From Syntrophorhabdaceae bacterium (lineage in GTDB: Bacteria > Desulfobacterota > Syntrophorhabdia > Syntrophorhabdales > Syntrophorhabdaceae), in the NCBI GenBank assembly GCA_963665295.1, contig OY762209.1:4096001-4160000 (forward strand): DNA of 64,000 bases, read 5' to 3'. The notes below the pieces were generated by a model, which had not been told where the DNA came from, did no database searches, and saw only the letters and a program-made list of their open reading frames with translations. The translations under genes were made by a program, and so were the position numbers. Positions within the stretch are counted from its first letter, which is position 1, and every line of letters begins with the position of its first letter. Positions 37,391 through 58,991 of the stretch are shown here, one piece after another.

Positions 37391-37842
37391 GGCCTTGACA
37401 GGTATTTATCTTCCCACTCCGTTATTTTATCTATCCTTCTAGTGTGCCTTCCACCTTCGAAAGGCGTGTCGAACCAGACCTTCACGATCTCCTCCGCGAG
37501 GCCCTTCCCTATCACCCGGCCTCCCAGGACAAGAACGTTCGTGTCGAGATGGCGCCTGCTTTGCATGGCTGTATAGATATCCTGGGCGAGAACCGCCCTG
37601 ACCCCTTTCACCTTGTTTGCCACCACGCTCATTCCCACGCCTGTCCCACATACGAGGATACCCCTGTCGGCCGATCCGTCGGATACAAGCCCGGCGGCTT
37701 TCAGACCGTAATCAGGATAGTCCACGGATGCCTCGGTGTCGGTCCCTGCATCAATAACCGTATAACCTCTCTCTTTTACAAGGTTCTTCACAAATTCTTT
37801 CAGCTCGTATCCCGCGTGATCCGACCCGAGAGCTACCCTCAC
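37387..37842 (-). CDS. rpiB: Ribose 5-phosphate isomerase B
   Basis: GSDHAG, DYPD, CGTGVG, FEGGRH. Confidence 0.96.
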
Positions 37843-39080
37843 TTTTCGAACCTCCGGAAGACAAGGGTGCAGTTGGTTCCGCCGAAACCGAAGGAATTCG
37901 ACATAGCCACCTCGATACCATGCTTTCTCGCGGCGTTGGGCACATAGTCCAGATCACATTCAGGATCGGGATTTTCGTAATTTATGGTGGGCGGGCACAC
38001 CTGGTCTCTTATGCTCAAGGCCGAAAACACGGCCTCAACAGCTCCCGCCGCGCCCAGAAGATGACCTGTCATCGATTTGGTGGAACTTACGGGTATCTTA
38101 TACGCCCGCTCCTTAAAAACCTCTTTTATTGCAATGGTCTCTATGTGATCGTTCAAGCCGGTGGAGGTCCCGTGGGCATTGATATAATCCACGTCGTCCT
38201 CAACCAGCCCGCCGTCTTTCAAGGCCATTTTCATACATCGAACGAATCCGTTCCCGTCAGGGGCCGGAGCGGTAATGTGGTACGCGTCACCGTTATAGCC
38301 ATACCCTGCCAGTTCCGCATAAATCTTTGCGTTCCTCTTCAGGGCGTGTTCGAGTTCTTCCAGAATTACAATGCCTGCGCCCTCGGCCACCACAAAACCG
38401 TCCCGGTCCCTTTCAAATGGCCTTGAGGCCTTTGCGGGCTCACCATTCCTTCTCGAAAGAGCCTTCATGGCGTTGAAACCTCCCACGGTGAGAGGGGTCA
38501 GGTTCGCCTCGGTCCCCCCCGCAACCATCACGTCTGCATCACCGTACTGTATGATCCGGAAGGCGTCGCCTATGGAATGGGCGCCCGTCGCACAGGCTGT
38601 CACGATACAAAGGTTGGGCCCTTGAATGCCGTGTTGTATGGCGATATGACCCGGAGCCTCGTTTGCTATCAACATGGGAATGAAAAAGGGTGATATCCTG
38701 CCCGGTCCCCTTTCAAGGAGGATCGTGTGATATTTCTCCAGCGTGGGGAGACCGCCAAGGCCGGTTCCGGCCACGACTCCCACTCTCGTCCGGTCTTCAG
38801 AAGCCATATCGAGTTTCGCGTCTTCAATGGCAATCTGCGTCGCACCGAGCACATACTGAATAAACAGGTCTATTTTCTTTATTTCTTTCGGGGATATAAA
38901 ATCCTCCGGCTTAAAGCCCTTGACCTCTCCCGCGATCTTCGTCTCAAACTGGGATGTGTCAAATCGTGTAATCGCCGATATACCCGACTCACCATTCAGT
39001 ATCTTACTCCAGACGCTTTCATTCCCGGTGCCGAGGGGCGTTACGAGACCTATTCCTGTCACCACCACTCTTCTCTTCAA
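37839..39080 (-). CDS. fabF: 3-oxoacyl-ACP synthase II
   Basis: TACATG, NAHGTST, KSMTGHLLGA, SNSFGFGG. Confidence 0.97.
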   Translation of the reverse strand: MKRRVVVTGIGLVTPLGTGNESVWSKILNGESGISAITRFDTSQFETKIAGEVKGFKPEDFISPKEIKKIDLFIQYVLGATQIAIEDAKLDMASEDRTRVGVVAGTGLGGLPTLEKYHTILLERGPGRISPFFIPMLIANEAPGHIAIQHGIQGPNLCIVTACATGAHSIGDAFRIIQYGDADVMVAGGTEANLTPLTVGGFNAMKALSRRNGEPAKASRPFERDRDGFVVAEGAGIVILEELEHALKRNAKIYAELAGYGYNGDAYHITAPAPDGNGFVRCMKMALKDGGLVEDDVDYINAHGTSTGLNDHIETIAIKEVFKERAYKIPVSSTKSMTGHLLGAAGAVEAVFSALSIRDQVCPPTINYENPDPECDLDYVPNAARKHGIEVAMSNSFGFGGTNCTLVFRRFEK

Positions 39081-39097: not shown

Positions 39098-39349
<252 letters not shown>

Positions 39350-39381: not shown

Positions 39382-40113
39382 CTACATATGTAAACCGCCG
39401 TTGACGTTTATCACCTCTCCGGTAATATAACTCCCGTACTCCGAAAGAAGGAAATACACGACACGCGCAACGTCGGTTGTTTCTCCCAACCGGCCAAGGG
39501 GAATCGCCCTAAACAACTCCTCTCTTGCCTTCTCGCTCAGTTCATCCGTCATCTTGGTCCGAATGAAACCGGGAGCCACTGCGTTGACCCTGATGCCCCT
39601 CTCTCCATATTCCTTGGCCACGCTTTTGGTAAACCCGATCAGTCCGGCCTTGCTCGCCGCGTAATTAGCCTGACCCGCATTACCCATAATACCGACAACA
39701 GAGGTAATGTTCACGATCGCCCCTCCTGTCCTCAACATAGGTTTGATCACTGCCCTGGTGCAGTTGAAGGCGCTCTTCAGGTTCACGTGGATGACTCTGT
39801 CCCAATCCTCTTCCTTCATCCGTATCAACAATTTGTCGTTGGTGATACCCGCGTTGTTTACCAGGCAATGTACCTTGCCCAGTGTCTTTATCACCGCGCC
39901 TACCGCTTCTTCCACGGCATGGAAATCGGTCACGTCGACGTGAAAGAATTCTGCCCTTCTGCCCTTCGCCCTGATCTCCTCCACCACTCCGCTGCCATCA
40001 GCAATATCGAATACCGCGATGTCGCCACCCTTTTCCGCAAGGAATTCGGCTATTGTCTTTCCGATGCCTTGGGCGGCGCCCGTTATGATGGTAACCCTAT
40101 TATTCATCTGCAC
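39382..40113 (-). CDS. fabG: 3-oxoacyl-ACP reductase
   Basis: TGAAQGIG, NNAGIT, GNAGQANYAASK, VAPGFI. Confidence 0.97.
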   Translation of the reverse strand: MQMNNRVTIITGAAQGIGKTIAEFLAEKGGDIAVFDIADGSGVVEEIRAKGRRAEFFHVDVTDFHAVEEAVGAVIKTLGKVHCLVNNAGITNDKLLIRMKEEDWDRVIHVNLKSAFNCTRAVIKPMLRTGGAIVNITSVVGIMGNAGQANYAASKAGLIGFTKSVAKEYGERGIRVNAVAPGFIRTKMTDELSEKAREELFRAIPLGRLGETTDVARVVYFLLSEYGSYITGEVINVNGGLHM

Positions 40114-40134: not shown

Positions 40135-41073
40135 TCACGCCAATAAGCCCTTCAGCGCTTCGATCTCGTCCAAGTTTTCCACGTTGTAACAAGGAACAGT
40201 CGGTTCGATCCTCTTGATAAGGTTGGTGAGAACCTTCTGAGGTCCCACTTCAACAAATATCTCCACGCCTTCCGCCACCATTCTTCTGACGCACTGTTCC
40301 CAGCGAACGGGAGAGAACATCTGTCTGTAAAGCTTATCGGCAATTACATCCCTGTCCTGCTCCGGAGCGGCATCCACGTTACCCATCACGGGAAAGTTCA
40401 CATTCCTCTTCGCAACAAGCCGTATCTCTTCTTTTAGTTTCTCCGCCCCTTCTTTCATGAGAGGGCTGTGAAACGGTCCCGACACATTGAGAAAAACGGC
40501 TTTCTTATACCCTACGCCTTTCAGCTTCTCCACGCTTTCCTTCAAAGCGCCGATATCCCCCGACAGGACCACCTGGTCCGCCGAGTTCAGGTTGGCCGGC
40601 ACTGCAACGTAATCACCGTGAGAGATATCCTTCAGGAGGGGTTCCACCTTTTCCATGTTCGCCCCGATCAACGCCACCATGCCGCCCTTACCCTTCGGAC
40701 ACGACTCCTCCATGAGGAGCCCTCTTTTCCTTGTTATGTTGAGGGCGTCTTCGAAGGTAAAATAACCGGCGGCGAGCAACGCGGTATACTCACCGAGGCT
40801 GTGACCCGCAAAAAGAAACGGCGTCAGCTGTGTCTCCTTCTTCAGAACCTCCCACACCGCATAACACGTGAGAAGGAGCGCCGGCTGGGTATTATATGTC
40901 TGCCTCAGTTCTTCCTCGGGTCCGCTGAAACAGAGGTCCGTAATCGGAAAACCGAGAACCCTGTCCGCTGTTCCGAACAACTCCTTTATTTCATCAAACC
41001 TGTCGTAAAGTTTTTTCCCCATGCCGACATATTGAGAGCCCTGCCCGGGGAACACAATACCTATCTTTTTCAT
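40135..41073 (-). CDS. fabD: Malonyl-CoA:ACP transacylase
   Basis: FPGQGSQ, TQPA, GHSLGEY, VSGPFHS. Confidence 0.97.
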   Translation of the reverse strand: MKKIGIVFPGQGSQYVGMGKKLYDRFDEIKELFGTADRVLGFPITDLCFSGPEEELRQTYNTQPALLLTCYAVWEVLKKETQLTPFLFAGHSLGEYTALLAAGYFTFEDALNITRKRGLLMEESCPKGKGGMVALIGANMEKVEPLLKDISHGDYVAVPANLNSADQVVLSGDIGALKESVEKLKGVGYKKAVFLNVSGPFHSPLMKEGAEKLKEEIRLVAKRNVNFPVMGNVDAAPEQDRDVIADKLYRQMFSPVRWEQCVRRMVAEGVEIFVEVGPQKVLTNLIKRIEPTVPCYNVENLDEIEALKGLLA

Positions 41074-42234
41074 TTATCTTCTCTTTTGGGCTGCTTCCTT
41101 TACAAGCTCAAGGCCGATCACATTTCGCTGAATCTGATTCGTGCCTTCATAAATCTGCAAAATCTTTGCATCTCTCAGCATCTTCTCAACCGGGTATTCC
41201 TTCATGTATCCGTACCCACCGAAGACCTGCAGCGCATCCACGACGACCTTCATCGCCACATCGCTCGGGAACACCTTGCTCATGGCGGAAACTTTGGAGG
41301 TATCCTTCGGGTTGCTGTCGATAAAACGAGCCACCGCGTACACAAGTGCGCGGGCGGCCTCTACCTGGGTCGCCATGTCGGCAAGCATATGCTGTATGGC
41401 CTGGAAGGAAGCTATCTTTCTATCGAACTGCTCCCGCTCCCTCGCATAACGAACTGCTGCGTCCAACGCGGCATGAGCTACCCCAACAGCCTGGGCGCCA
41501 ATACCGGGCCTTGTCTTGTCAAAGGTCCGCATGGCATAGATAAACCCCATACCCTCTCTACCTATAACATTTTCCTTGGGAACTTTGCAATCTTGAAATA
41601 CAAGCTCTCTCGTTGCGGAGGCTCTGATGCCAAGCTTGTTCTCCTTCTTTCCGAAGGTAAAGCCTTCCATCCCTTTTTCCAGGATAAAAGCGGTGGCGCC
41701 TCTGCCGCCTTTCGTCTTGTCGGTCTTCGCAATAACCGTATAAATATCGGCCTCTCCGCCGTTTGTAATCCACTGTTTCGTGCCGTTGAGGATATACTCG
41801 TCCCCCACTTTCTTTGCCTCTGTGCGTATGCTCTGTGCGTCGCTACCCGCACCTGCTTCCGTGAGACCGAAGGCACCAAGCTTTTCTCCCGAGGCAATCT
41901 GACTCAGGTACTTCTTCTTCTGTGCTTCGGAACCTCCGAGGAGGATCGGGTACGCCCCCAGGAGACTTGCTGCATAACTCACCGACACCCCGAGGCACGC
42001 TTTGCTCAATTCTTCAACCACGATGCAGTTTTCAAAACATCCGCCGCCCAGTCCACCGTACTCCACAGGTATACTCACACCGAAAAGTCCAGTGTCTCCA
42101 CAGACTTTCATCACGCTCCACGGAAACTCCTGTTTCTCGTCGAGTTCGGCCCGAACGGGAACAACCTTCTCTTCAGCAATCCTGCGGGCCAGGGCGCGAA
42201 TATTCTTCTGGTCTTCTGTGAGGAAATAATCCAT
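41074..42234 (-). CDS. Acyl-CoA dehydrogenase family flavoprotein occupying the fabH position
   Basis: GLTEAGAGSD, NGTKQWITNG, KLGIRAS, REQF, QVFGGYGY, IYEGTNQIQR (catalytic Glu intact). Confidence 0.95.
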   Translation of the reverse strand: MDYFLTEDQKNIRALARRIAEEKVVPVRAELDEKQEFPWSVMKVCGDTGLFGVSIPVEYGGLGGGCFENCIVVEELSKACLGVSVSYAASLLGAYPILLGGSEAQKKKYLSQIASGEKLGAFGLTEAGAGSDAQSIRTEAKKVGDEYILNGTKQWITNGGEADIYTVIAKTDKTKGGRGATAFILEKGMEGFTFGKKENKLGIRASATRELVFQDCKVPKENVIGREGMGFIYAMRTFDKTRPGIGAQAVGVAHAALDAAVRYAREREQFDRKIASFQAIQHMLADMATQVEAARALVYAVARFIDSNPKDTSKVSAMSKVFPSDVAMKVVVDALQVFGGYGYMKEYPVEKMLRDAKILQIYEGTNQIQRNVIGLELVKEAAQKRR

Positions 42235-42235
42235 G

Positions 42236-43243
42236 CTATCTCTCCTTTATCTTCTGAAGTGACTCGTAATTCTGCATCGTTTCCTTGATAGATTCATTCA
42301 GGTTCCTATCTACAAAATTGCCGGCCATAATGATGGCATTCCTTATCGCGTAGTGACTCGACTTGCCGTGACATATAATGGACACACCATCCACACCCAA
42401 CAGAGGCGCACCCCCTATATTCGCATAGTCGAACCTCTGCCTTATCTGCTTCAATATCTCCTGCATAAACGCATAACCGGCAACATTATGGATGTTTTCC
42501 GCCGCCTTTTCCTTCAAGAATCCCATCAACATTTCGGCGATTCCTTCCGTGATTTTCAGGGCCACATTTCCCACAAAGCCGTCGGTCACCACCACGTCGG
42601 TGTTTCCGTTATGCATGTCCGTGCCTTCCACATATCCCAGATAATTGAGGTCTATGTTCTTCAGAAGGCTGTTGGCCTCCCTTGTCAACTCGTTACCTTT
42701 CGTCTCCTCCGTGGCATTACTCAACAGGCCCACTTTCGGAGCGTCAAAACCGAAGGCGCATCGGGCGAAAATATCACCCATTATGGCAAACTGGATAATA
42801 TGTGTCGCCCGGCAGTCCACATTGCCCCCCGAATCGACGAGAACCGTCGTCCCCCCCTTGGCATTCGGGTGAAGCGTGGCAATGGCGGGCCGGTCGACAC
42901 CCGGCAGCCTTCCCAGGGTAAAAATGGCGAAGCCCATGGCAGCGCCGGAGTTCCCCGCAGTCACCACCCCTTGAACGGCCCCCTGTTTCAGCAACTCAAA
43001 GGCCTTATTCATGGAGCAGTCTCTTTTCTTTCTCAGGGCGTTCGAGGGAGACTCGTCCATCCCGACCACCGTCGCCGTGTGCACAATCTCCATGGAGGAA
43101 TCGCCTATCAGGGGCCGGAGCTTCTCCTCGTCACCGACGAGAACGATATCCGCTATCCTGTCGCTATGTACAGATAGAGCCCCTTTCACGACCGCATGAG
43201 GCGCAAAATCTCCCCCCATACCGTCTACCGCTATCCTCACCAT
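42236..43243 (-). CDS. plsX: Phosphate acyltransferase PlsX
   Basis: IAVDGMGGD.AP, AGNSGA, DRPA, DGFVGN, GGAPLLG, CHG.S. Confidence 0.97.
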   Translation of the reverse strand: MVRIAVDGMGGDFAPHAVVKGALSVHSDRIADIVLVGDEEKLRPLIGDSSMEIVHTATVVGMDESPSNALRKKRDCSMNKAFELLKQGAVQGVVTAGNSGAAMGFAIFTLGRLPGVDRPAIATLHPNAKGGTTVLVDSGGNVDCRATHIIQFAIMGDIFARCAFGFDAPKVGLLSNATEETKGNELTREANSLLKNIDLNYLGYVEGTDMHNGNTDVVVTDGFVGNVALKITEGIAEMLMGFLKEKAAENIHNVAGYAFMQEILKQIRQRFDYANIGGAPLLGVDGVSIICHGKSSHYAIRNAIIMAGNFVDRNLNESIKETMQNYESLQKIKER

Positions 43244-43442: not shown

Positions 43443-43961
43443 CTAATTTAGAAAAGATTTTAGTTTTTCGCCTAACAGGGTGTGAGATACCCCGCTGCAC
43501 CGGCACTCCTCGTAATTCCTGTTGCCGCCGCACGTTTCGCACAATCCCTTGCAATCTTCCTTGCAGACCGGTTTGATGGGTATACTAAGCATAAGTTCTT
43601 CGTACACAAACGGGTCCAGGTCGATCTCATCACCCTCATAATAGTAAATATCGAGGTCCTCACCCGTCAGCTCCAACTCCGATGCCGACGGCATGAGCGC
43701 TTTCGGTGCAAGTTCTATATCAAGAAAGGTTTCCACAGGTAACGTAAATTCTTCCAGGCACTTGCTGCATGTCAGGGTCAGGGTGCATGCAATCCGTCCC
43801 TTCACGACTATTATGCCGCCGTTCTTTCCGGCCGTAAGCTCATAATTCGCGGGTCTAAGAAAAGCAACGTCGCCGTATCCTTCCATGTCCCGGAGTTTCG
43901 AAGCCTCTATCGCCCCTTCCACTACTGCCCGGTCTTCTATGTCAGAAACCTTGATAATCAT
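43443..43961 (-). CDS. yceD: YceD / DUF177 family protein
   Basis: CSKCL and P.KPVCKEDCKGLC..CG.N motifs; upstream of rpmF. Confidence 0.92.
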   Translation of the reverse strand: MIIKVSDIEDRAVVEGAIEASKLRDMEGYGDVAFLRPANYELTAGKNGGIIVVKGRIACTLTLTCSKCLEEFTLPVETFLDIELAPKALMPSASELELTGEDLDIYYYEGDEIDLDPFVYEELMLSIPIKPVCKEDCKGLCETCGGNRNYEECRCSGVSHTLLGEKLKSFLN

Positions 43962-43982: not shown

Positions 43983-44011
43983 AATATAATGGGTTTACCC
44001 TTGCTTGTCAA
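43983..44011 (-). promoter_or_regulatory. Sigma70 promoter of the yceD-rpmF-plsX-fab-rib supra-operon
   Basis: TTGACA (44011-44006), 17 nt, TATATT (43988-43983) on the - strand. Confidence 0.8.
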
Positions 44012-46094: not shown

Positions 46095-47255
46095 TTACTT
46101 TTCATAGAGAGGTGACATGGCCCGCAGTCTTTCCACTACACCGGGGATAACCGAGAGGGCGTAATCTATATCCTCCTCCGTATTATCCTTGCCGAGACTG
46201 AAGCGGACCGCGCTCTGACACAGTATTGCCGGTATGCCCATGGCAGTGAGTACTGGTGAAGGCTCGGAAGAACCCGAGGAACACGCGGAACCCGAAGAGA
46301 CTGCAATTCCATTCATATCCAGGGCAATAACCAGGGACTCCCCCTCCGCGCCCTCGAAACTCAGATTGAGTGTGTTGGGCAATCTCCGGTCAGGATCCCC
46401 ATTCAGCGTCACCTTGTCCACGCGCCCCATAATACCCTCAACCAGTCTGCGCCTCAGGGACTCTATTCTCGCGTTCCGTCGGTCCATCTCGTTCCGCGCA
46501 AGCTCGCACGCTTTGCCGAAAGCCACTATGCCGACCATGTTCTCAGTGCCCGCTCTTCGCGAGGACTCCTGATGTCCGCCGTGGACAAGAGCGTCCAATT
46601 CGACGCCGCCCCTTATAAAGAGGGCCCCGACGCCTTTGGGCGCATATATCTTATGACCCGAGAAACTGGCGAGGTCGACGTTGAGGGCTTCCATATCACA
46701 CGGGATCTTGCCCAGGGCCTGCACCATATCGGAGTGAAACAGAATGCCCCGTTCCCTCGCGATCTCTCCGATCTCCTTTATGGGCATCACGGTTCCCGTC
46801 TCATTATTCGCATACATGACGGTAATCAGTACCGTCTCCTTCCGTATAGCCTCCCTCACTTCCTCGGCTTCCACACGACCGTTTCGGTCAACGGAAAGGT
46901 AAGTAACGATATATCCCTGTGATTCTAAATACTTACATGAATTAAGGACTGCAGGATGTTCTACAGTGGTTGTAATTATATGATTTCCTTCACTTTTTCT
47001 TGAATAGGCCACGCCTTTCACGGCATGGTTGTCACTTTCGGACCCGCAACTTGTGAAGACGACCTCCCCGGGGTCCGCGTGAATCATCGCAGCCACCTGC
47101 TCCTTCGCTAATTCATGACAACCTCGTGTCTCTCTTCCCGCCCAGTGGAGGCTCGATGGGTTTCCAAACAGCTCCTCAAGAAAAGGCCGCATCGACGCGG
47201 CGACCTCAGGATCGACAGGAGTGGTCGCATTATAGTCGAAATAAACCCTTCGCAT
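46095..47255 (-). CDS. iscS: Cysteine desulfurase (IscS/NifS group I)
   Basis: YFDYNATT, GNPSS, NNETG, SGHKIY.PKG, SSGSACSSG; real start ATG 47255, so the ORF track over-extends it. Confidence 0.92.
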   Translation of the reverse strand: MRRVYFDYNATTPVDPEVAASMRPFLEELFGNPSSLHWAGRETRGCHELAKEQVAAMIHADPGEVVFTSCGSESDNHAVKGVAYSRKSEGNHIITTTVEHPAVLNSCKYLESQGYIVTYLSVDRNGRVEAEEVREAIRKETVLITVMYANNETGTVMPIKEIGEIARERGILFHSDMVQALGKIPCDMEALNVDLASFSGHKIYAPKGVGALFIRGGVELDALVHGGHQESSRRAGTENMVGIVAFGKACELARNEMDRRNARIESLRRRLVEGIMGRVDKVTLNGDPDRRLPNTLNLSFEGAEGESLVIALDMNGIAVSSGSACSSGSSEPSPVLTAMGIPAILCQSAVRFSLGKDNTEEDIDYALSVIPGVVERLRAMSPLYEK

Positions 47256-47266
47256 GGCTCTCCCGG

Positions 47267-47674
47267 CTAATCGAAAAAGACATTCATCGCTTTGACAGGG
47301 CACACCCTGACGCACAGTTCGCATGCCACGCATTTTTCGTAGTCGAATACCACGTTCATGGTCTCCCTGTCCAGATGTAACGCCTCGGGGGCGCAGACAC
47401 TGGTGCACACGCCACAGTGAACGCACTTCGACTCATTTCTCTGGATATCCTGCTCTATCGGTTCAGTGTCGATATTAAGGCTCTTCAGATACTGGATGCC
47501 CTTCCCGAAGTTCTCCTCCGTGCCCTCTATCTCCAGCACCATCATGGATTCGGCCCTTGGAGACACGTTTGCCCTCAGAATGTTGAAAACAAGATCATAC
47601 CCTTTCGCCAGTTTGTAGACTATGGGCTTGTCTATGGTGTTTCTCTTGAACCTCAGAATTATTCTCTTTTTCAT
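47267..47674 (-). CDS. NIL domain + 2x[4Fe-4S] ferredoxin (MA1822-like)
   Basis: PIVYKLAK.YDL.FNILRA (NIL); CVHCGVCTSVC and CVACELCVRVCP. Confidence 0.9.
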   Translation of the reverse strand: MKKRIILRFKRNTIDKPIVYKLAKGYDLVFNILRANVSPRAESMMVLEIEGTEENFGKGIQYLKSLNIDTEPIEQDIQRNESKCVHCGVCTSVCAPEALHLDRETMNVVFDYEKCVACELCVRVCPVKAMNVFFD

Positions 47675-47726
47675 GCCGAACCTCACTTAATTTTGTTCCA
47701 GCCGCCCGCGCGAACGCCTTAAGCCT

Positions 47727-48449
47727 TCAAATTTTCACGATCTCCAAATCTCCCCACAACCCGATATGATCGCCGAGTATGATCAGAATACCCAAAACGC
47801 CGGGGTACTTCTTCCCTACATCAATGGCGTGGGGTATATCATCTTTCCGTTTGACAATATTGCCCACCCTCGTTGCAAGCCCATCGGCAAGAAGGGCGGA
47901 CCTCCCTACAATACACACTGCATCGGCTCTGCCGAAGCTTATGGAAGGGCCCACCGTTCCCGAAGACGTGCACACCCCGTAGGGTATGCGGTCAGGCTTG
48001 ATCCGGATTCCTATCCTTCGACTGAAAGGGGAATCCTTGGCATAGACCAGTACCACCCTTTCCCGTTTGGTCAGGAGGGCTATATCCCCCCCATTCTCTA
48101 TCATGTATTCGTCCGTAAGGGGGGTAATATCCTTCCCCACAAACTCTGCGATTGCGCCCGCCACCGTGGCCATGGGCCCAATGCCGAGGCTCGCCGAAAC
48201 ATTGATCATTTCTCTTAACAGCGCCGGAGCGAAGAGATCATCAGGGACAGGCGTCAGACTCTCACGGAATTCCGGTTTCAATCTAATGTACTCTTCCAGT
48301 TGATTTCTGTAGAAAAGCACTCTCTCCTCAATAAATCCGCTTAAGTCTTCTCCTGTGCAACAGAACAAGTCTGTTTCCTTGATCTTCACCTCATAACACT
48401 TGAGGTCACGGGGTCTTGAAATACCCCTGTAGAATCTCTCCTCGTACAT
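47727..48449 (-). CDS. UPF0280 / ApbE-like family protein (MA1715-like)
   Basis: ETDL, GPMATVAGAIA, ENGGDI, CTSSGTVGPSISFGRADA; start ATG 48449 (MYEERFYR). Confidence 0.9.
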   Translation of the reverse strand: MYEERFYRGISRPRDLKCYEVKIKETDLFCCTGEDLSGFIEERVLFYRNQLEEYIRLKPEFRESLTPVPDDLFAPALLREMINVSASLGIGPMATVAGAIAEFVGKDITPLTDEYMIENGGDIALLTKRERVVLVYAKDSPFSRRIGIRIKPDRIPYGVCTSSGTVGPSISFGRADAVCIVGRSALLADGLATRVGNIVKRKDDIPHAIDVGKKYPGVLGILIILGDHIGLWGDLEIVKI

Positions 48450-48627
48450 AAAATCCCTGTCCCCGGACGAAGCCCTCCAGGATCGCAGGTTCGGACTTCG
48501 AAGCACCTCCTATGCCGCCCATCACATGAAGCCGGAATTGATGAGCCGGATACTCACGGTGTCCCGGCCGCTACGTTGTCAAAATATGCGGCCCACCTTC
48601 GCGAATCCTTTTGAACATGAGGACTTA

Positions 48628-54317: not shown

Positions 54318-55148
54318 TCAGTGGAACACCCCTACGACGAGGAGCATGATGAATATGCCCACCGACAGGGCAGAAAAACCGACGACTGCTGCCGCAACTT
54401 CCAGCCACAGTGCGGGCGGATCGCTCTGGATAGCTTTCAGCCTGCCTTCCCGTTCGAGTCTTTCATACTCGGTGGAACGTTCCTCTCTGAATTCCTCTTC
54501 CTCAACACGTCCCGTAAAAATCACCGGGTCAAGGGGAAATTTGTCCCCCCGAAGATGAGTATGGATAAAGTGGAAGATGAAGATGAAACCCGTAGCAAGG
54601 AGAGCTTCATCACTGTGGACGATAGTGGCGATATTAAGCACCCATCCCGGGAAAAGACGAGCGGCAAGCGTTGGAAACCAAAGAAAGAGTCCCGAGACTC
54701 CTATCATCCCTACCCCCCAGAATACCGCCCAGTAATCGAATTTCTCCCAGTATGTCCACCTGTCAAACCTCGGTCTCGGACCGAGGCCGAGGAACCACCT
54801 GAAATTGGCGTACAGGTCTTTCGCATCCTTGATTCCAGGCACCATCGAATTCGGGCCCAGAAGAAAGGTAAAAAGTGGCTGGGTCAATTTGTACTTGAAA
54901 AAATAGCATAGATAACAAAGATGAGCGGCGAAATACCCGAATGTCACCACCGCACAAACCCGGTGGAGAAAACCGGCCCTCTCGAACCCTCCCAGAAAGG
55001 TTACGAGGTAACGAGCCCACAGACTGTCACTGTACTTGAGTGGAAGACCTGTCAGGGCAAGACCGAGAAAACTGGTCATGACGAATAAGTGCATGACACG
55101 GTGGAAATGGTTAAACCGCACAAAATATATCCGCTTGGCCCGCGTCAT
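54318..55148 (-). CDS. Membrane di-heme cytochrome b subunit (CbcL/CbcB- or FdnI-like)
   Basis: HRVMH..LALTGLP, LHR, RWTYWEKFDYWAVFWG, IVHSDEALLA..FIFIFH; about five TM segments. Confidence 0.88.
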   Translation of the reverse strand: MTRAKRIYFVRFNHFHRVMHLFVMTSFLGLALTGLPLKYSDSLWARYLVTFLGGFERAGFLHRVCAVVTFGYFAAHLCYLCYFFKYKLTQPLFTFLLGPNSMVPGIKDAKDLYANFRWFLGLGPRPRFDRWTYWEKFDYWAVFWGVGMIGVSGLFLWFPTLAARLFPGWVLNIATIVHSDEALLATGFIFIFHFIHTHLRGDKFPLDPVIFTGRVEEEEFREERSTEYERLEREGRLKAIQSDPPALWLEVAAAVVGFSALSVGIFIMLLVVGVFH

Positions 55149-56509
55149 TTGCCCCTCCTCTCCCGCCTCTTCCGCAGACGCTCAATCCAGGACCGTGGGA
55201 GCCAGAGAAGGGCGTGGATTCCAAAAAATCCGAAGGTCGCCACAAGAAGGGCTGTCATGAAAAGCCACACATAGTAAAAAATGGGGTGATCGCCCTTGTG
55301 TGTATAATCCGCATGGACCACAAATTCCGTGAATCCCTTTTCGGCCTTCGGGTGACATTGCCGACACGTTGTAAGCAGGTTCTCAGCCGAAATCCTGGAC
55401 CTGGGGTCTGACCGGGGAAGGACATCGTGGGCGCCATGACAGTCCGCGCACTTCGCTACCCTGGTAAAACCAAGGTTGGTTACCTTTCCATGATATGAAT
55501 GATGGTACGTCTCGAGGGGGTCTCTATGACAGCTTCCGCATTCCCTGATCGCGTCCAGCATCCAGGTGTTTGCCTTTACCCGTCTTATCTCATGCGCAGG
55601 GTGACAGGTAGAACAACTCGGAGCGTTCCTGTTCCCTTTTGCCACTGCCCGGGAGTGAGCGCTTATCTTGTAGGCCTGTTCCGCTTTTGAATGGCATTTT
55701 CCACACGATGCGGAGATATTGGCAGGATATATCAGTGAGGTAGGATCCGTGTGAGGTTTTATTGCATGGGAACCGTGACAATCATTGCAGGCGGCCGAGA
55801 CGAGGACTCCCGATTTAGTGAGTGCTTGTCCATGGATACTATCCTTGTAAAGAGCGTACGCCTTTTCCGCGGGGATCTTGTATTTCTTTACCATCTCCGG
55901 GTTCGAATGACAACGGGAACATGTTGCCGGCAGGTTGACGGCATAGACGGGCGAACGGGGGTTGTTTTTGCCAAGCATATCATGGGTCTTTCCATGACAA
56001 TCAGCGCAGGCTGCCGTTTCACCCATGCCTTTGCCGCCCGTCTTTGCCCGGGAATGAATTCCTTCCCCGTATTCGCGATACACAGTTGCGTGACAGGTCC
56101 GGCATGTCGTTGCAGTCAACGTCTTCGCCTTCTCCACCCCGTGATAGCCGTGGCAATCCTTGCAGGTTGCCCCCTGCCCTTTGCCGCTCCCGTGAACGCT
56201 CGTACGGTAATGCTTGTACGTATCTCCATGGCAGGCACCGCAGGAGCGCACACTCACAGTCTCAGGATGGGGCAGGTCTTTGATGTCGTGACATCCCACA
56301 CAGTTCAGTGAGCCATGGACCGATTTGTCGAAAATGTCCTTGTTGAAGAAGAGGGAAATCGTTTTCCCCCCGGAGGCCTGCTTGGTGAGTTCTTTCTCTC
56401 CGTGACATCCCATGCAGTCGTCGTTGGTAATTCCGGCCCCATGGGCGTTTGCCCAGAGAAACAGCAAAGACAGTAAGAAAAGACCGCCGAATAATGCTCT
56501 CTTCTTCAA
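55145..56509 (-). CDS. Membrane-anchored multiheme cytochrome c (13 CxxCH)
   Basis: Signal peptide from TTG 56509 (SD GGAGG 8 nt upstream); 13 CxxCH motifs counted; C-terminal TM; ATGA overlap with cytochrome b. Confidence 0.93.
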   Translation of the reverse strand: MKKRALFGGLFLLSLLFLWANAHGAGITNDDCMGCHGEKELTKQASGGKTISLFFNKDIFDKSVHGSLNCVGCHDIKDLPHPETVSVRSCGACHGDTYKHYRTSVHGSGKGQGATCKDCHGYHGVEKAKTLTATTCRTCHATVYREYGEGIHSRAKTGGKGMGETAACADCHGKTHDMLGKNNPRSPVYAVNLPATCSRCHSNPEMVKKYKIPAEKAYALYKDSIHGQALTKSGVLVSAACNDCHGSHAIKPHTDPTSLIYPANISASCGKCHSKAEQAYKISAHSRAVAKGNRNAPSCSTCHPAHEIRRVKANTWMLDAIRECGSCHRDPLETYHHSYHGKVTNLGFTRVAKCADCHGAHDVLPRSDPRSRISAENLLTTCRQCHPKAEKGFTEFVVHADYTHKGDHPIFYYVWLFMTALLVATFGFFGIHALLWLPRSWIERLRKRRERRGK

Positions 56510-56740
56510 AACCGCGTCCTCCCTTTCTCTTGCTGAAGTCATTTTACCCCATTTTCTCTTATCTGACAATTACTTTCATTTCCCCTTCACCGGCGGAGGC
56601 CCCTCTCGCGGGTCCGTTGCAAGGAAGACCCTGGTGCCGACGCCGACACGAGGGAGATGCGAAAGCGCGGCCCTGCGCCTTTTTTCACTGAAAATGATGA
56701 GGGTAGACTAAAATAGGGAGAAGGCGGCCCGGTTAAGCCG

Positions 56741-57088
56741 CTATACGAAGGTATCGAGGGTATGTTTTACGATCTCGTCCTGTGCCTGGAAGGCTTTAAG
56801 CGTTGCTTCATAACTTCTTTGCAGGAGCACCAACCTGGGCATGTCCTGACTGTGAATGACGTCGTATACCTCGGCAAAAAGCCCACTGGATGCCTGGGCT
56901 ATCGAACCGTACGGGTCCATCCTGATCCCTTCCCCGACTGCAAGACTTGCAGATGCGCCCTTTTCCGCGGCTACAACAGTCTTCGGGTCCGGAGGTCCCG
57001 AACCGGCACCGGCTCGTGGGCCTTCCCGGCCCATCCTGGCCCCCTGGGTAGTGCTCCCCACTATGTACGGATACACGCTTTCAATCAT
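56741..57088 (-). CDS. Small protein with flagellar basal-body rod/hook C-terminal-like helix
   Basis: C-terminus DMPRLVLLQRSYEATLKAFQAQDEIVKHTLD resembles the rod/hook C-terminal (QR.YEAN.K....DE) motif; supported by a well-placed promoter. Confidence 0.65.
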   Translation of the reverse strand: MIESVYPYIVGSTTQGARMGREGPRAGAGSGPPDPKTVVAAEKGASASLAVGEGIRMDPYGSIAQASSGLFAEVYDVIHSQDMPRLVLLQRSYEATLKAFQAQDEIVKHTLDTFV

Positions 57089-57094
57089 GAAGCG

Positions 57095-57140
57095 ATATTA
57101 GCAGAGATACAGGCGGCAGTCTGTGACAACCATCACATTT
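57095..57140 (-). promoter_or_regulatory. Class II CRP-family-activated promoter: TGTGA-N6-TCACA box plus extended -10
   Basis: TGTGA-caacca-TCACA-ttt at 57122-57140. TG-C-TAATAT at 57103-57095 (-). Box centre is -41.5 from predicted +1 = 57088. Confidence 0.72.
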
Positions 57141-57218
57141 TTCCGATAGACTTCTGCCCACGGGTACCGCTCACTAAATCGTGGGTCGCCAATAGAAGAG
57201 TCCGTGATCCCGAATGTC

Positions 57219-58673
57219 TTATCCGCCGGGACCCGGTCTCCTTGTCTGGCCGAATCGGTCCGGCTGGTCCTGTTCGTCAGGGAATATTTTGCCGGGGTTC
57301 AAAATCCCCTTTGGATCGAATGCCGCCTTTATACGCTTCATGAGGTCTATTTCCGTTTCCGTCATCTGGAGCCGCATATAGTTCTTTACCGTAATGCCCA
57401 CTCCGTGCTCGCCGGTCAGTTTGCCCCCCATGTCCACCGTCTTTCTGTATATCTCTCCCAATAGCTCATTCGCCTCCTGAAGCTCTGCGAAATTCTTTCT
57501 CCTGTACTGTATGGTCACGTGCAGGTTGCCGTCGCCTCCGTGGCCAAAAGTCGCCACCTTTACCAGTCTGCCCGCCGCGCTCTCTTTGATAGCCCGCACC
57601 AACCGGGGGAGATGGTAACGGGGTACGACGACATCTGCCTCCAGATGATCCTTGCCTTTCGACTTAAGGGCGGGCAATGCCTCCCTCCTGATCCTCCACA
57701 GCTTCTCTGCCTCCTTGTCGTCGACGGCAAGTCTTGCCTCCATAATACCCGCTGTTCCGTCGGCCAGAGCGAGGACACGTCCGGCCTGCTCATCCACCGC
57801 TCCACGGTGGTTCCCATCAATCTCGATAAGAACGAGGGCAGCGGCGTCCCTTTTCAGTTCTTCCGTGCCCGGAAGATAATCGGCCACGCAATTCATGGTG
57901 TAGTTGTCCATGAACTCTATGGCGCACGGGATCGTCCCACTCTCGAACACGGCGGCTACCAGATCCGCGGCAAGGGAAAGGTCGTTCACATAAAAGATAC
58001 ACGTACGATGGTAATCGGGCATGGCGAGCACTCTGCACGTAATCTTCGTGATAATTGCAAGGGTTCCTTCGGAACCCGTGAGAAGCGCCACCAGATCGTA
58101 TCCGGTTACGTTCTTTACCGTACGCCCTCCCGCGTTGATTATGCCTCCATCAGGCAGAACCGCCTCCAATCCCAGTACGTAATCTCTCGTGACCCCGTAT
58201 TTCACGGCCCTCGTGTATCCCGCGTTTTCTGCGACATTGCCGCCCAGAGTACTCTCTACGGTGCTCGATGGGTCGGGCGGAAAGAACAGGCGGTGATATG
58301 CGAGGGTCTTCTGGAGATCCGCAGATATGACGCCGGGTTCCACCACGACCTGCATGTTGTCCTTGTCGATCTCAAGTATCTTGTTCATCCGGAGAAGGGA
58401 TATCACGACGCCACGTTCCACCGGCAACGCGCCCCCTGAAAGCCCCGTCCTGCCCCCCTGGGGCGTCACCGGCACACCCGTCTCACACGCAAGTTTCATG
58501 ATTCCCGACACCTGTTCCGTATTCGTGGGAAGGAGCACGGCGTCGGGCATAAATCGCATTTCCGTCGCATCGTAGCAGTAATGGGAAAGGCCGTCCCTGT
58601 CTGAAATCACCTGGTCCGCCTCAAGAAACTTCTTCACTTCTTCCATAAATATCCCAATGCCCTGCCCGTTCAT
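57219..58673 (-). CDS. FAD-linked 2-hydroxyacid oxidoreductase (GlcD / D-lactate dehydrogenase family)
   Basis: GGRTGLSGG, PPDPSS..STLGGNVAENAG, GSEGTL, GHGGDGNLH, GEHGVG, DPKGILNPGK; start ATG 58673 after GGAGG. Confidence 0.92.
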   Translation of the reverse strand: MNGQGIGIFMEEVKKFLEADQVISDRDGLSHYCYDATEMRFMPDAVLLPTNTEQVSGIMKLACETGVPVTPQGGRTGLSGGALPVERGVVISLLRMNKILEIDKDNMQVVVEPGVISADLQKTLAYHRLFFPPDPSSTVESTLGGNVAENAGYTRAVKYGVTRDYVLGLEAVLPDGGIINAGGRTVKNVTGYDLVALLTGSEGTLAIITKITCRVLAMPDYHRTCIFYVNDLSLAADLVAAVFESGTIPCAIEFMDNYTMNCVADYLPGTEELKRDAAALVLIEIDGNHRGAVDEQAGRVLALADGTAGIMEARLAVDDKEAEKLWRIRREALPALKSKGKDHLEADVVVPRYHLPRLVRAIKESAAGRLVKVATFGHGGDGNLHVTIQYRRKNFAELQEANELLGEIYRKTVDMGGKLTGEHGVGITVKNYMRLQMTETEIDLMKRIKAAFDPKGILNPGKIFPDEQDQPDRFGQTRRPGPGG

Positions 58674-58991
58674 CGAACCACCTCCATCAATATCCGTTCC
58701 TTCCATCCCGCTCCGAATCACAGGCCATCCCCACCCCTTCGCACGGGATACATACCATAACAATTTATACAAAGTCGGTTGAGCCATTGCAATCATTTCC
58801 TTTAAACAAGCAACCGGGCCTGTGTCGGATAGACATGTGCACCGGCGTTCTCGCCTTTTCCCGCGCGACGTACCTCACCAATTTCCCTTAATAGCTTAAG
58901 AAAGGTTATAATAAAACCGATAACAGCAGAAAGCATTGCAAAACAAAGGCAGGTTTGTGTGTATGGTCTACGACCGGGGGGAGAGACTAGA

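Follow-up and report, generated by a model that had tools for sequence, protein, structure and literature searches.

An acyl-CoA dehydrogenase (ACAD) gene lies inside the core operon for type II fatty-acid synthesis (FAS) in a 64,000-nucleotide stretch of a Syntrophorhabdaceae genome (contig OY762209.1, positions 4,096,001 to 4,160,000; the whole stretch is hereafter called the window), and we predict that its product is probably a housekeeping enoyl-acyl carrier protein (ACP) reductase fed by an electron-transferring flavoprotein (ETF). An enoyl-ACP reductase is needed in every round of bacterial fatty-acid synthesis. An ETF-dependent enzyme of this kind was one of three roles suggested by a first-pass annotation made from the sequence alone, and gene context and phyletic profile lend it good support. 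There is a good chance that the clade of this ACAD represents a new class of enoyl-ACP reductase, and a literature search covering mostly open-access titles and abstracts returned no publication on an ACAD that acts as an enoyl-ACP reductase or belongs to a fab operon.

In the proposed reaction, FabZ would make trans-2-enoyl-ACP, the reduced FAD of the ACAD would give a hydride to C3 and Glu363 would protonate C2. The ACAD reaction would thus run in reverse on an ACP thioester, possibly of any chain length, and an ETF would re-reduce the FAD. In many relatives, an operonic bifurcating ETF with a ferredoxin-fused EtfA would use NADH and reduce ferredoxin too. In the source family, the ETF would act in trans, most likely from a thl-crt-etfB-etfA operon.

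Position and conservation of the ACAD gene

All genes of the operon are on the minus strand of the window in the order yceD-rpmF-plsX-ACAD-fabD-fabG-acpP-fabF. A single base (42235) lies between the plsX stop and the ACAD ATG, and the ACAD TAA directly abuts the fabD ATG. The NCBIfam cut-offs were passed by plsX, fabD, fabG, acpP and fabF (Table 1). The first-pass annotation had described this gene order, without stating the strand, and this spacing, and both agree with the coordinates. It had also correctly reported a window without fabH, enoyl-ACP reductase, fabZ or ETF genes, as every fabH, FabI, fabZ and ETF match of the source genome (G000) lies outside the window.

Conservation was evaluated in a family sample of 61 genomes, comprising G000 and 60 relatives. 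The ACAD was single-copy in 60 of the 61, and plsX and/or fabD flanked it in all 29 non-self loci inspected, so that its operon position is not due to chance. The median identity within the family was 87% for the ACAD versus 63% for PlsX and 73% for FabD. The sole family genome without the ACAD (G015) was also without fabD; it was considered as a natural swap of the ACAD for FabK and rejected, since fabD is missing too and its FabK-like gene stands in a catabolic context.

We then surveyed 80 related loci from Desulfobacterota-type Deltaproteobacteria, Nitrospirota, Omnitrophota, Elusimicrobiota, Actinomycetota, Bacillota and other groups, and core fab genes (plsX, fabH, fabD, acpP or fabF) were found within 5 kb of the ACAD at 45 of them. 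A phylum sample, which overlaps the family sample, was made up of 281 genomes belonging to the same phylum as G061, and the ACAD was matched in 140 of them (E ≤ 1e-130). Forty of these matches were hand-picked because their genomes had few ACADs or their contigs were long: 32 lay inside a fab operon, these being all of the matches with E ≤ 6.1e-144, and the other 8 lay outside. Within the 32 fab loci, etfB or etfBA was present in 22 and fabH in 14, and fabD was variable too, while the ACAD was constant. Seven weaker matches (53–58% identity), which were outside fab operons and had a different ETF, were left out of the fab-linked set but remain among the 140. In a phylogenetic tree, fab-linked and unlinked members interleaved within a single 109-sequence clade (support 0.65), nested in a group of 119 sequences (support 0.999) that includes one G000 paralog. 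The ACAD is thus a fixed operon member and belongs to a single-copy clade that spans several anaerobic phyla, and the recurrence in fab operons that the first-pass annotation had proposed to look for was found in all three samples.

That annotation had been headed by the claim that the ACAD replaces fabH. This is ruled out by a stand-alone fabH in G000 (C1:4486908-4487894, 385 bits with a cut-off of 292), a genome that is 98% complete, by fabH in 57 of the 61 family genomes, and by the presence of fabH at 27 of the 80 related loci, in 19 of which it is immediately upstream of the ACAD. In the source lineage, fabH has moved out of the fab operon; the fabZ of G000 adjoins lpxA. The second suggested role, supply of a short acyl-CoA primer for FabH-independent initiation, fails because an ordinary fabH is present in G000 and in nearly all of its family. 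The operon slot is the fabK slot and not the fabH slot.

Two sets of clade relatives were found in other surroundings. A related ACAD-EtfB-EtfA group (L233, L234 and L236-L240) occurs outside fab operons in small genomes (1.5–1.8 Mb), often as the sole ACAD, with an ETF without the bifurcation motif and in genomes without a FabI, FabK-like or FabV match. At a few Actinomycetota loci (L008, L057, L061 and related ones), a clade ACAD-etfBA set is located by genes for biotin carboxylase, biotin carrier, BioY and biotin ligase, and not by fab genes.

Known enoyl-ACP reductases and the fabK slot

Among the 60 relatives, FabI was found in 13 and FabK-like proteins (>170 bits) in 9, none of the latter being over the cut-off or beside fab genes in the loci read; TIGR03151, the FabK family, had no match in genus g14 (0/4). 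FabV was found in none of the 61 family genomes with the models PF12241 and NF010177, which had no match in control genomes, NF010177 being shown to work by a match in G201. No FabI, FabK-like or FabV match was obtained in 38 of the 60 relatives, all of which carry the ACAD and 27 of which are at least 95% complete. FabI and FabK-like proteins are patchy accessories in this family, in which the ACAD is near-universal. ATP-grasp acyl-CoA ligase subunits adjoin the PRK07533-type FabI at 9 of the 14 family FabI loci (L122-L135), which hints that this patchy FabI may serve CoA esters rather than FAS.

In the phylum sample, the ACAD and FabI were near-exclusive. None of the 38 genomes with FabI at ≥280 bits carried the ACAD, and lowering the FabI threshold to ≥230 bits or dropping it altogether gave 2 carriers among 43 genomes and 8 among 53, respectively, in line with the anticorrelation that the first-pass annotation had put forward as a check. 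The ACAD was also found in none of the four genomes having FabK over the cut-off, and 74 of the 140 ACAD-bearing genomes had no FabI, FabK-like or FabV match.

The operon slot provided a second line of evidence. The rpmF gene was found in 58 of 60 ACAD-negative genomes, and 40 of these loci were read. A FabK-like gene occupied the slot in seven of the 40, which had been chosen for their top FabK scores (372–502 bits). In two of them (G067 and G109), the order yceD-rpmF-plsX-fabK-fabD-fabG-acpP-fabF-rpiB-glyA was that of the window with fabK replacing the ACAD, and another (G087) had plsX-fabH-fabK-fabD. At one further locus (G137, L339:7567-9237), an ACAD of a different type, 557 aa long and 40% identical, was found in the slot between rpmF and fabG. 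The ACAD sits in the fabK slot of the fab operon.

FabK (enoyl-ACP reductase II) is typical of anaerobes, and it shares with the ACAD both the slot before fabD and the flavin hydride transfer to enoyl-ACP that we propose here. They differ in that FabK is described as an FMN enzyme with a TIM-barrel fold and direct NAD(P)H binding (PMC8626469), whereas the ACAD has an FAD-binding ACAD fold that requires an ETF. FabI, FabL and FabV, which are short-chain dehydrogenases/reductases, catalyse the net reaction that is proposed for the ACAD, but with an unrelated fold and with direct hydride transfer from NAD(P)H, without flavin or ETF.

Electron supply, substrate carrier and alternative roles

At 48 of the 80 related loci, etfB adjoins the ACAD, followed at 47 by an etfA-type gene, a scanned representative of which has a 4Fe-4S dicluster domain. 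All 48 of these EtfBs have DGDT[AG]QVGP, given in two sources as the motif for the bifurcating FAD of bifurcating ETFs (PMC9232219, PMC8958531), and the operonic partner therefore appears to be built for reduction by NADH. In a comparison of operonic EtfBs of other lineages with those of the source family, DGDTAQVGP was present in 45 of 46 and RxFxG in 44 of 46 of the former. The layout recalls CarCDE, the caffeyl-CoA reductase-Etf of Acetobacterium woodii (6FAH), which is described as an ACAD-EtfB-EtfA arrangement with an N-terminal 2x[4Fe-4S] domain in EtfA (PMC5861303). The same three-gene layout is seen at 47–48 of the 80 clade loci, but the ACAD matches CarC with 326 bits, below its matches to butyryl-CoA dehydrogenases (Bcds), no caffeate genes are present and the window operon has no ETF. 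Unlike bifurcating ACAD-EtfAB complexes, this operon has no co-encoded EtfB with DGDTAQVGP and RxFxG.

In the source family, the likeliest partner appears to be the ETF of a thiolase-crotonase-etfB-etfA (thl-crt-etfB-etfA) operon (Table 1), among the thl-crt and motif-bearing EtfBs that were profiled family-wide. This ACAD-less operon was conserved at all of the family loci read, and its EtfB was found in 58 of the 61 genomes with 74–87% identity. All 10 family sequences of this EtfB that were compared have neither DGDT[AG]QVGP nor RxFxG, and the ETF also has no ferredoxin domain; NADH is probably unable to serve as its electron donor. The operon was also found in 6 of 10 further genomes whose fab ACAD has no operonic ETF, as well as in G065, in these cases with a motif-bearing EtfB and a ferredoxin-EtfA, and the thl-crt ETFs of these genomes and of the source family form sister groups (support 0.997). 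We also considered whether G000, which has two motif-bearing EtfBs unlinked to the fab operon, keeps the operonic ETF at another site. The idea is unsupported because its two ferredoxin-EtfA sets, one by a membrane FeS oxidoreductase and one by fixC, fall with the thl-crt ETF outside the operonic ETF clade, as sister to it (support 0.70), and also because motif-bearing EtfBs occur in only 24 of the 61 family genomes.

Pairing with the thl-crt ETF supports two readings alike: one in which the electrons come from catabolic ACADs, and one in which the ACAD is a Bcd-like crotonyl-CoA reductase. The latter would act on CoA esters only, completing thl-crt-etfBA and producing butyryl-CoA as FabH primer or electron sink, with its place in the fab operon serving co-regulation. 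The closest solved structures are indeed Bcds, the best by sequence being 4L1F (393 bits, ~51% identity), to which a structure model of the ACAD (pLDDT 94.8) aligned with a TM score of 0.95 and an rmsd of 1.5 Å. The absence of an ACAD from the thl-crt operon at all loci examined, the recurrence of that operon in further genomes whose fab ACAD has no operonic ETF, and three 3-hydroxyacyl-CoA dehydrogenase domains in G000 also fit a CoA-only enzyme. However, such a role would leave the FabI exclusion and the FabK slot exchange unexplained and would name no enoyl-ACP reducer for the 38 relatives without a known one; etfBA adjoins most clade loci, but neither thiolase nor crotonase does, and the helix-E insertion of Bcds is missing. 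We consider this explanation, the main alternative, unlikely.

Comparison with Bcd-EtfAB (4L1F, 5OL2, 1BUC) illustrates both sides. The fold, the catalytic Glu and ~50% identity are shared, and Bcd-EtfAB is described as carrying out physiological enoyl-thioester reduction with ETF electrons (PMC5861303). The clade differs in its fab operon in place of a butyrate operon, where thl, crt, hbd and etfAB would cluster, in the proposed use of ACP thioesters of all lengths, and in having no bifurcating ETF linked to it in the source family. A one-residue insertion in helix E of 4L1F and 5OL2 is a gap in the clade. As known from work on MCAD and VLCAD, this insertion has a role in the shallow Bcd pocket and in chain length. 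Residues 84 and 88 are small in the clade, and together with the missing insertion they fit a pocket that may be deeper than that of Bcd.

The ACAD protein matched PF02771, PF02770 and PF00441 (N, M and C domains) above the Pfam cut-offs, and FabK, FabI, FabL and FabV families were not among its NCBIfam or Pfam matches. In all 23 NCBIfam matches it was under the curated cut-off, the best being AcrC with 435 of 640 bits, and none of the named ACAD equivalogs (AcrC, cyclohexanecarbonyl-CoA dehydrogenase, glutaryl-CoA dehydrogenase, RedW, PigA and MbtN) was reached. The nearest named ACAD records were from Syntrophorhabdaceae, with 86% identity. The FAD and catalytic motifs are intact, as had been claimed: TEAGAGSD at residues 125–132, GGYGY at 339–343 and YEG at 362–364. 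The catalytic Glu363 was invariant in 54 clade sequences, in which T125, S131, T157 and G364 were also invariant or nearly so.

Ten basic positions (K23, K173, K175, K197, R226, R236, R303, K310, K345 and K379) are conserved in the clade and rare in paralogs. Between the clade and the 13 other ACADs of G000, the frequencies were 100% versus 0% for R303, 96% versus 8% for K197, 94% versus 8% for R236 and 83% versus 8% for K173; some of the ten are also present in Bcds. We take these residues, by analogy with MCAD, to lie near the thioester entrance, and the set is compatible with docking of the acidic AcpP. The retention of presumed CoA-site residues beside the added basic ones would also suit an enzyme with both activities, that is, an enoyl-ACP reductase that doubles as the crotonyl-CoA reductase of the cell with the thl-crt ETF. 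FabI and FabV accept both ACP and CoA carriers, and a dual enzyme would unite the fab-operon evidence with the thl-crt-etfBA link. Against it, flux through butyryl-CoA would have to be assumed, any of the 13 other G000 ACADs could serve, and it overlaps with the enoyl-ACP reductase role, differing solely by the added scope. We see only a slim chance for it.

The last of the suggested roles, an oxidative acyl-ACP dehydrogenase for oxygen-independent unsaturation, fared poorly. ACADs normally oxidise, and, judging by family names, RedW, PigA, AnaB and MbtN show that the fold can take a carrier-bound thioester. These ACADs of secondary metabolism oxidise and are not housekeeping enzymes, unlike the role proposed here, and the ACAD matched the models weakly (262 of 650 bits for RedW, 250 of 500 for PigA and 81 of 700 for MbtN). 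The trans-ETF of the family, having no NADH-side motifs, could be an electron acceptor. However, FabZ already gives trans-2-enoyl-ACP, no isomerase is linked, ETFs encoded in the operon in other lineages belong to the NADH-using type, and the FabI exclusion would be unexplained. Moreover, G000 has a FabX-like flavoprotein (C1:2620078-2621109, L084) with 199 bits to 7E1Q, and similar matches occur in most family genomes, several beside a second fabH-like gene; 7E1Q is given as Helicobacter pylori FabX (PMC8626469). An oxidative role is therefore very improbable.

Several results weigh against the ACAD being a housekeeping enoyl-ACP reductase, apart from the selection by score of the seven loci with a FabK-like gene in the slot. 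G000 itself carries a FabI over the curated cut-off (NF005717, PRK07533, 424 of 337 bits, C1:2358215-2359033), which stands alone among unrelated genes, and a FabK-like protein (297 of 453 bits) among CoA-transferase-like genes; FabL was not found in G000 over the cut-off (best 170 of 328 bits). The role of the ACAD in this genome is thus not assignable by exclusion. An ordinary fabH and an enoyl-ACP reductase elsewhere in the genome, together with orthologs unlinked to fab genes, had been named beforehand as evidence that would speak against the annotation: an ordinary fabH, fabZ and a FabI over the cut-off are present elsewhere in G000, but the orthologs are fab-linked and most relatives have no FabI. 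In the phylum sample, FabK-like genes occur alongside the ACAD in 61 of the 140 genomes, and 28 of the 141 ACAD-negative genomes likewise have no FabI, FabK-like or FabV match. The absence of known reductases is hence not confined to ACAD carriers; additional reductases or missed matches exist. Only 6–9 candidates per genome were scored in this profile, and its Fisher p-values overstate significance as the genomes are kin and non-independent. The slot held no reductase at all in 32 of the 40 ACAD-negative loci, and 35 of the 80 clade loci were not beside fab genes, many of them on short contigs. With regard to electron supply and carrier, the fab operon of the family has no ETF gene, the bifurcation motif occurs in only 24 of the 61 family genomes, the thl-crt ETF is co-transcribed with thiolase and crotonase, which are CoA-pathway enzymes, and D239 and R242, which we take from MCAD to be CoA-site residues, are conserved in the clade.

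The fab operon is complete in several of the 28 genomes without the ACAD or a known reductase (e.g. G088, G301, G122 and G082), where another reductase may have gone unrecognised or been missed.

Features of the window and biological meaning

Table 1. Coordinates of the fab operon in the window and of the thl-crt operon in G000
Feature	Position	Strand	Basis
ACAD (386 aa), proposed ETF-fed enoyl-ACP reductase	41074..42234	-	Pfam domains, motifs, fold, context
plsX, acyl-ACP:phosphate acyltransferase	42236..43243	-	TIGR00182, 347.6 bits (cut-off 243.4)
fabD, malonyl-CoA:ACP transacylase	40135..41073	-	TIGR00128, 321.6 bits (cut-off 260.9)
fabG, 3-oxoacyl-ACP reductase	39382..40113	-	TIGR01830, 317.7 bits (cut-off 297.75)
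acpP, acyl carrier protein, DSLD motif, Ser36; presumed substrate carrier	39098..39337	-	TIGR00517, 116.4 bits
fabF, 3-oxoacyl-ACP synthase II	37839..39080	-	TIGR03150, 650.8 bits
rpmF (presumed), ribosomal protein L32	43247..43429	-	ORF; homologues flank operon in relatives
yceD (DUF177), first operon gene	43443..43961	-	NF008395, E 1.3e-7, under cut-off (weak match)
Sigma-70-like promoter, 11/12 matches, 17-nt spacer, ~20 nt upstream of yceD	43983..44011	-	Consensus match only
Thiolase-crotonase-etfB-etfA operon, no ACAD	G000 C1:3656243-3660133 (L087)	-	~480 kb from fab operon

The name rpmF was presumed from the sequence and position of the ORF. The promoter-like site is likely the start of the operon transcript, with 10 such sigma-70-like consensus sites found versus 5.9 expected in shuffles. 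An ORF of 606 aa at 40468-42288 on the plus strand is antisense to the ACAD and fabD; such antisense ORFs recur in relatives and seem to be by-products of codon usage. Upstream of the fab operon, at 47267-48506 and 46095-47426 on the minus strand, we found genes for an NIL-domain ferredoxin and a 259-aa protein without a Pfam match, and a cysteine-desulfurase-like gene. Consecutive genes for an FAD-linked oxidase, a multiheme cytochrome c and a cytochrome b561-like protein were located at 54318-58796 on the minus strand. Elsewhere in the genome (C1:1178000-1208500), a large accessory cluster contains four FabF-like, two ACP-like, FabG-like, DarB/FabH-like and radical SAM genes, which we presume to be of the aryl-polyene/dialkylresorcinol type.

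If the prediction holds, an ACAD/ETF enzyme would fill the reductase gap across many anaerobic phyla, including over half of the ACAD genomes in the phylum sample, and would add a new fold to the enoyl-ACP reductases. It would also correct thousands of annotations in which the gene is now read as belonging to beta-oxidation or butyrate metabolism. In the fatty-acid metabolism of syntrophs, the electrons of acyl-CoA oxidation are described as the hardest step (PMC7382037). A more tentative proposal, to which we give clearly less than an even chance, is that this new structural class bifurcates in many lineages and has been rewired in the source family to an ETF without NADH site or ferredoxin domain, the last step of lipid synthesis being driven there by high-potential electrons from catabolic acyl-CoA oxidation, which are the most difficult ones for syntrophs to get rid of. 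An ACAD/ETF reductase would in any case tie membrane synthesis to electron bifurcation or, in the source family, to syntrophic electron disposal.
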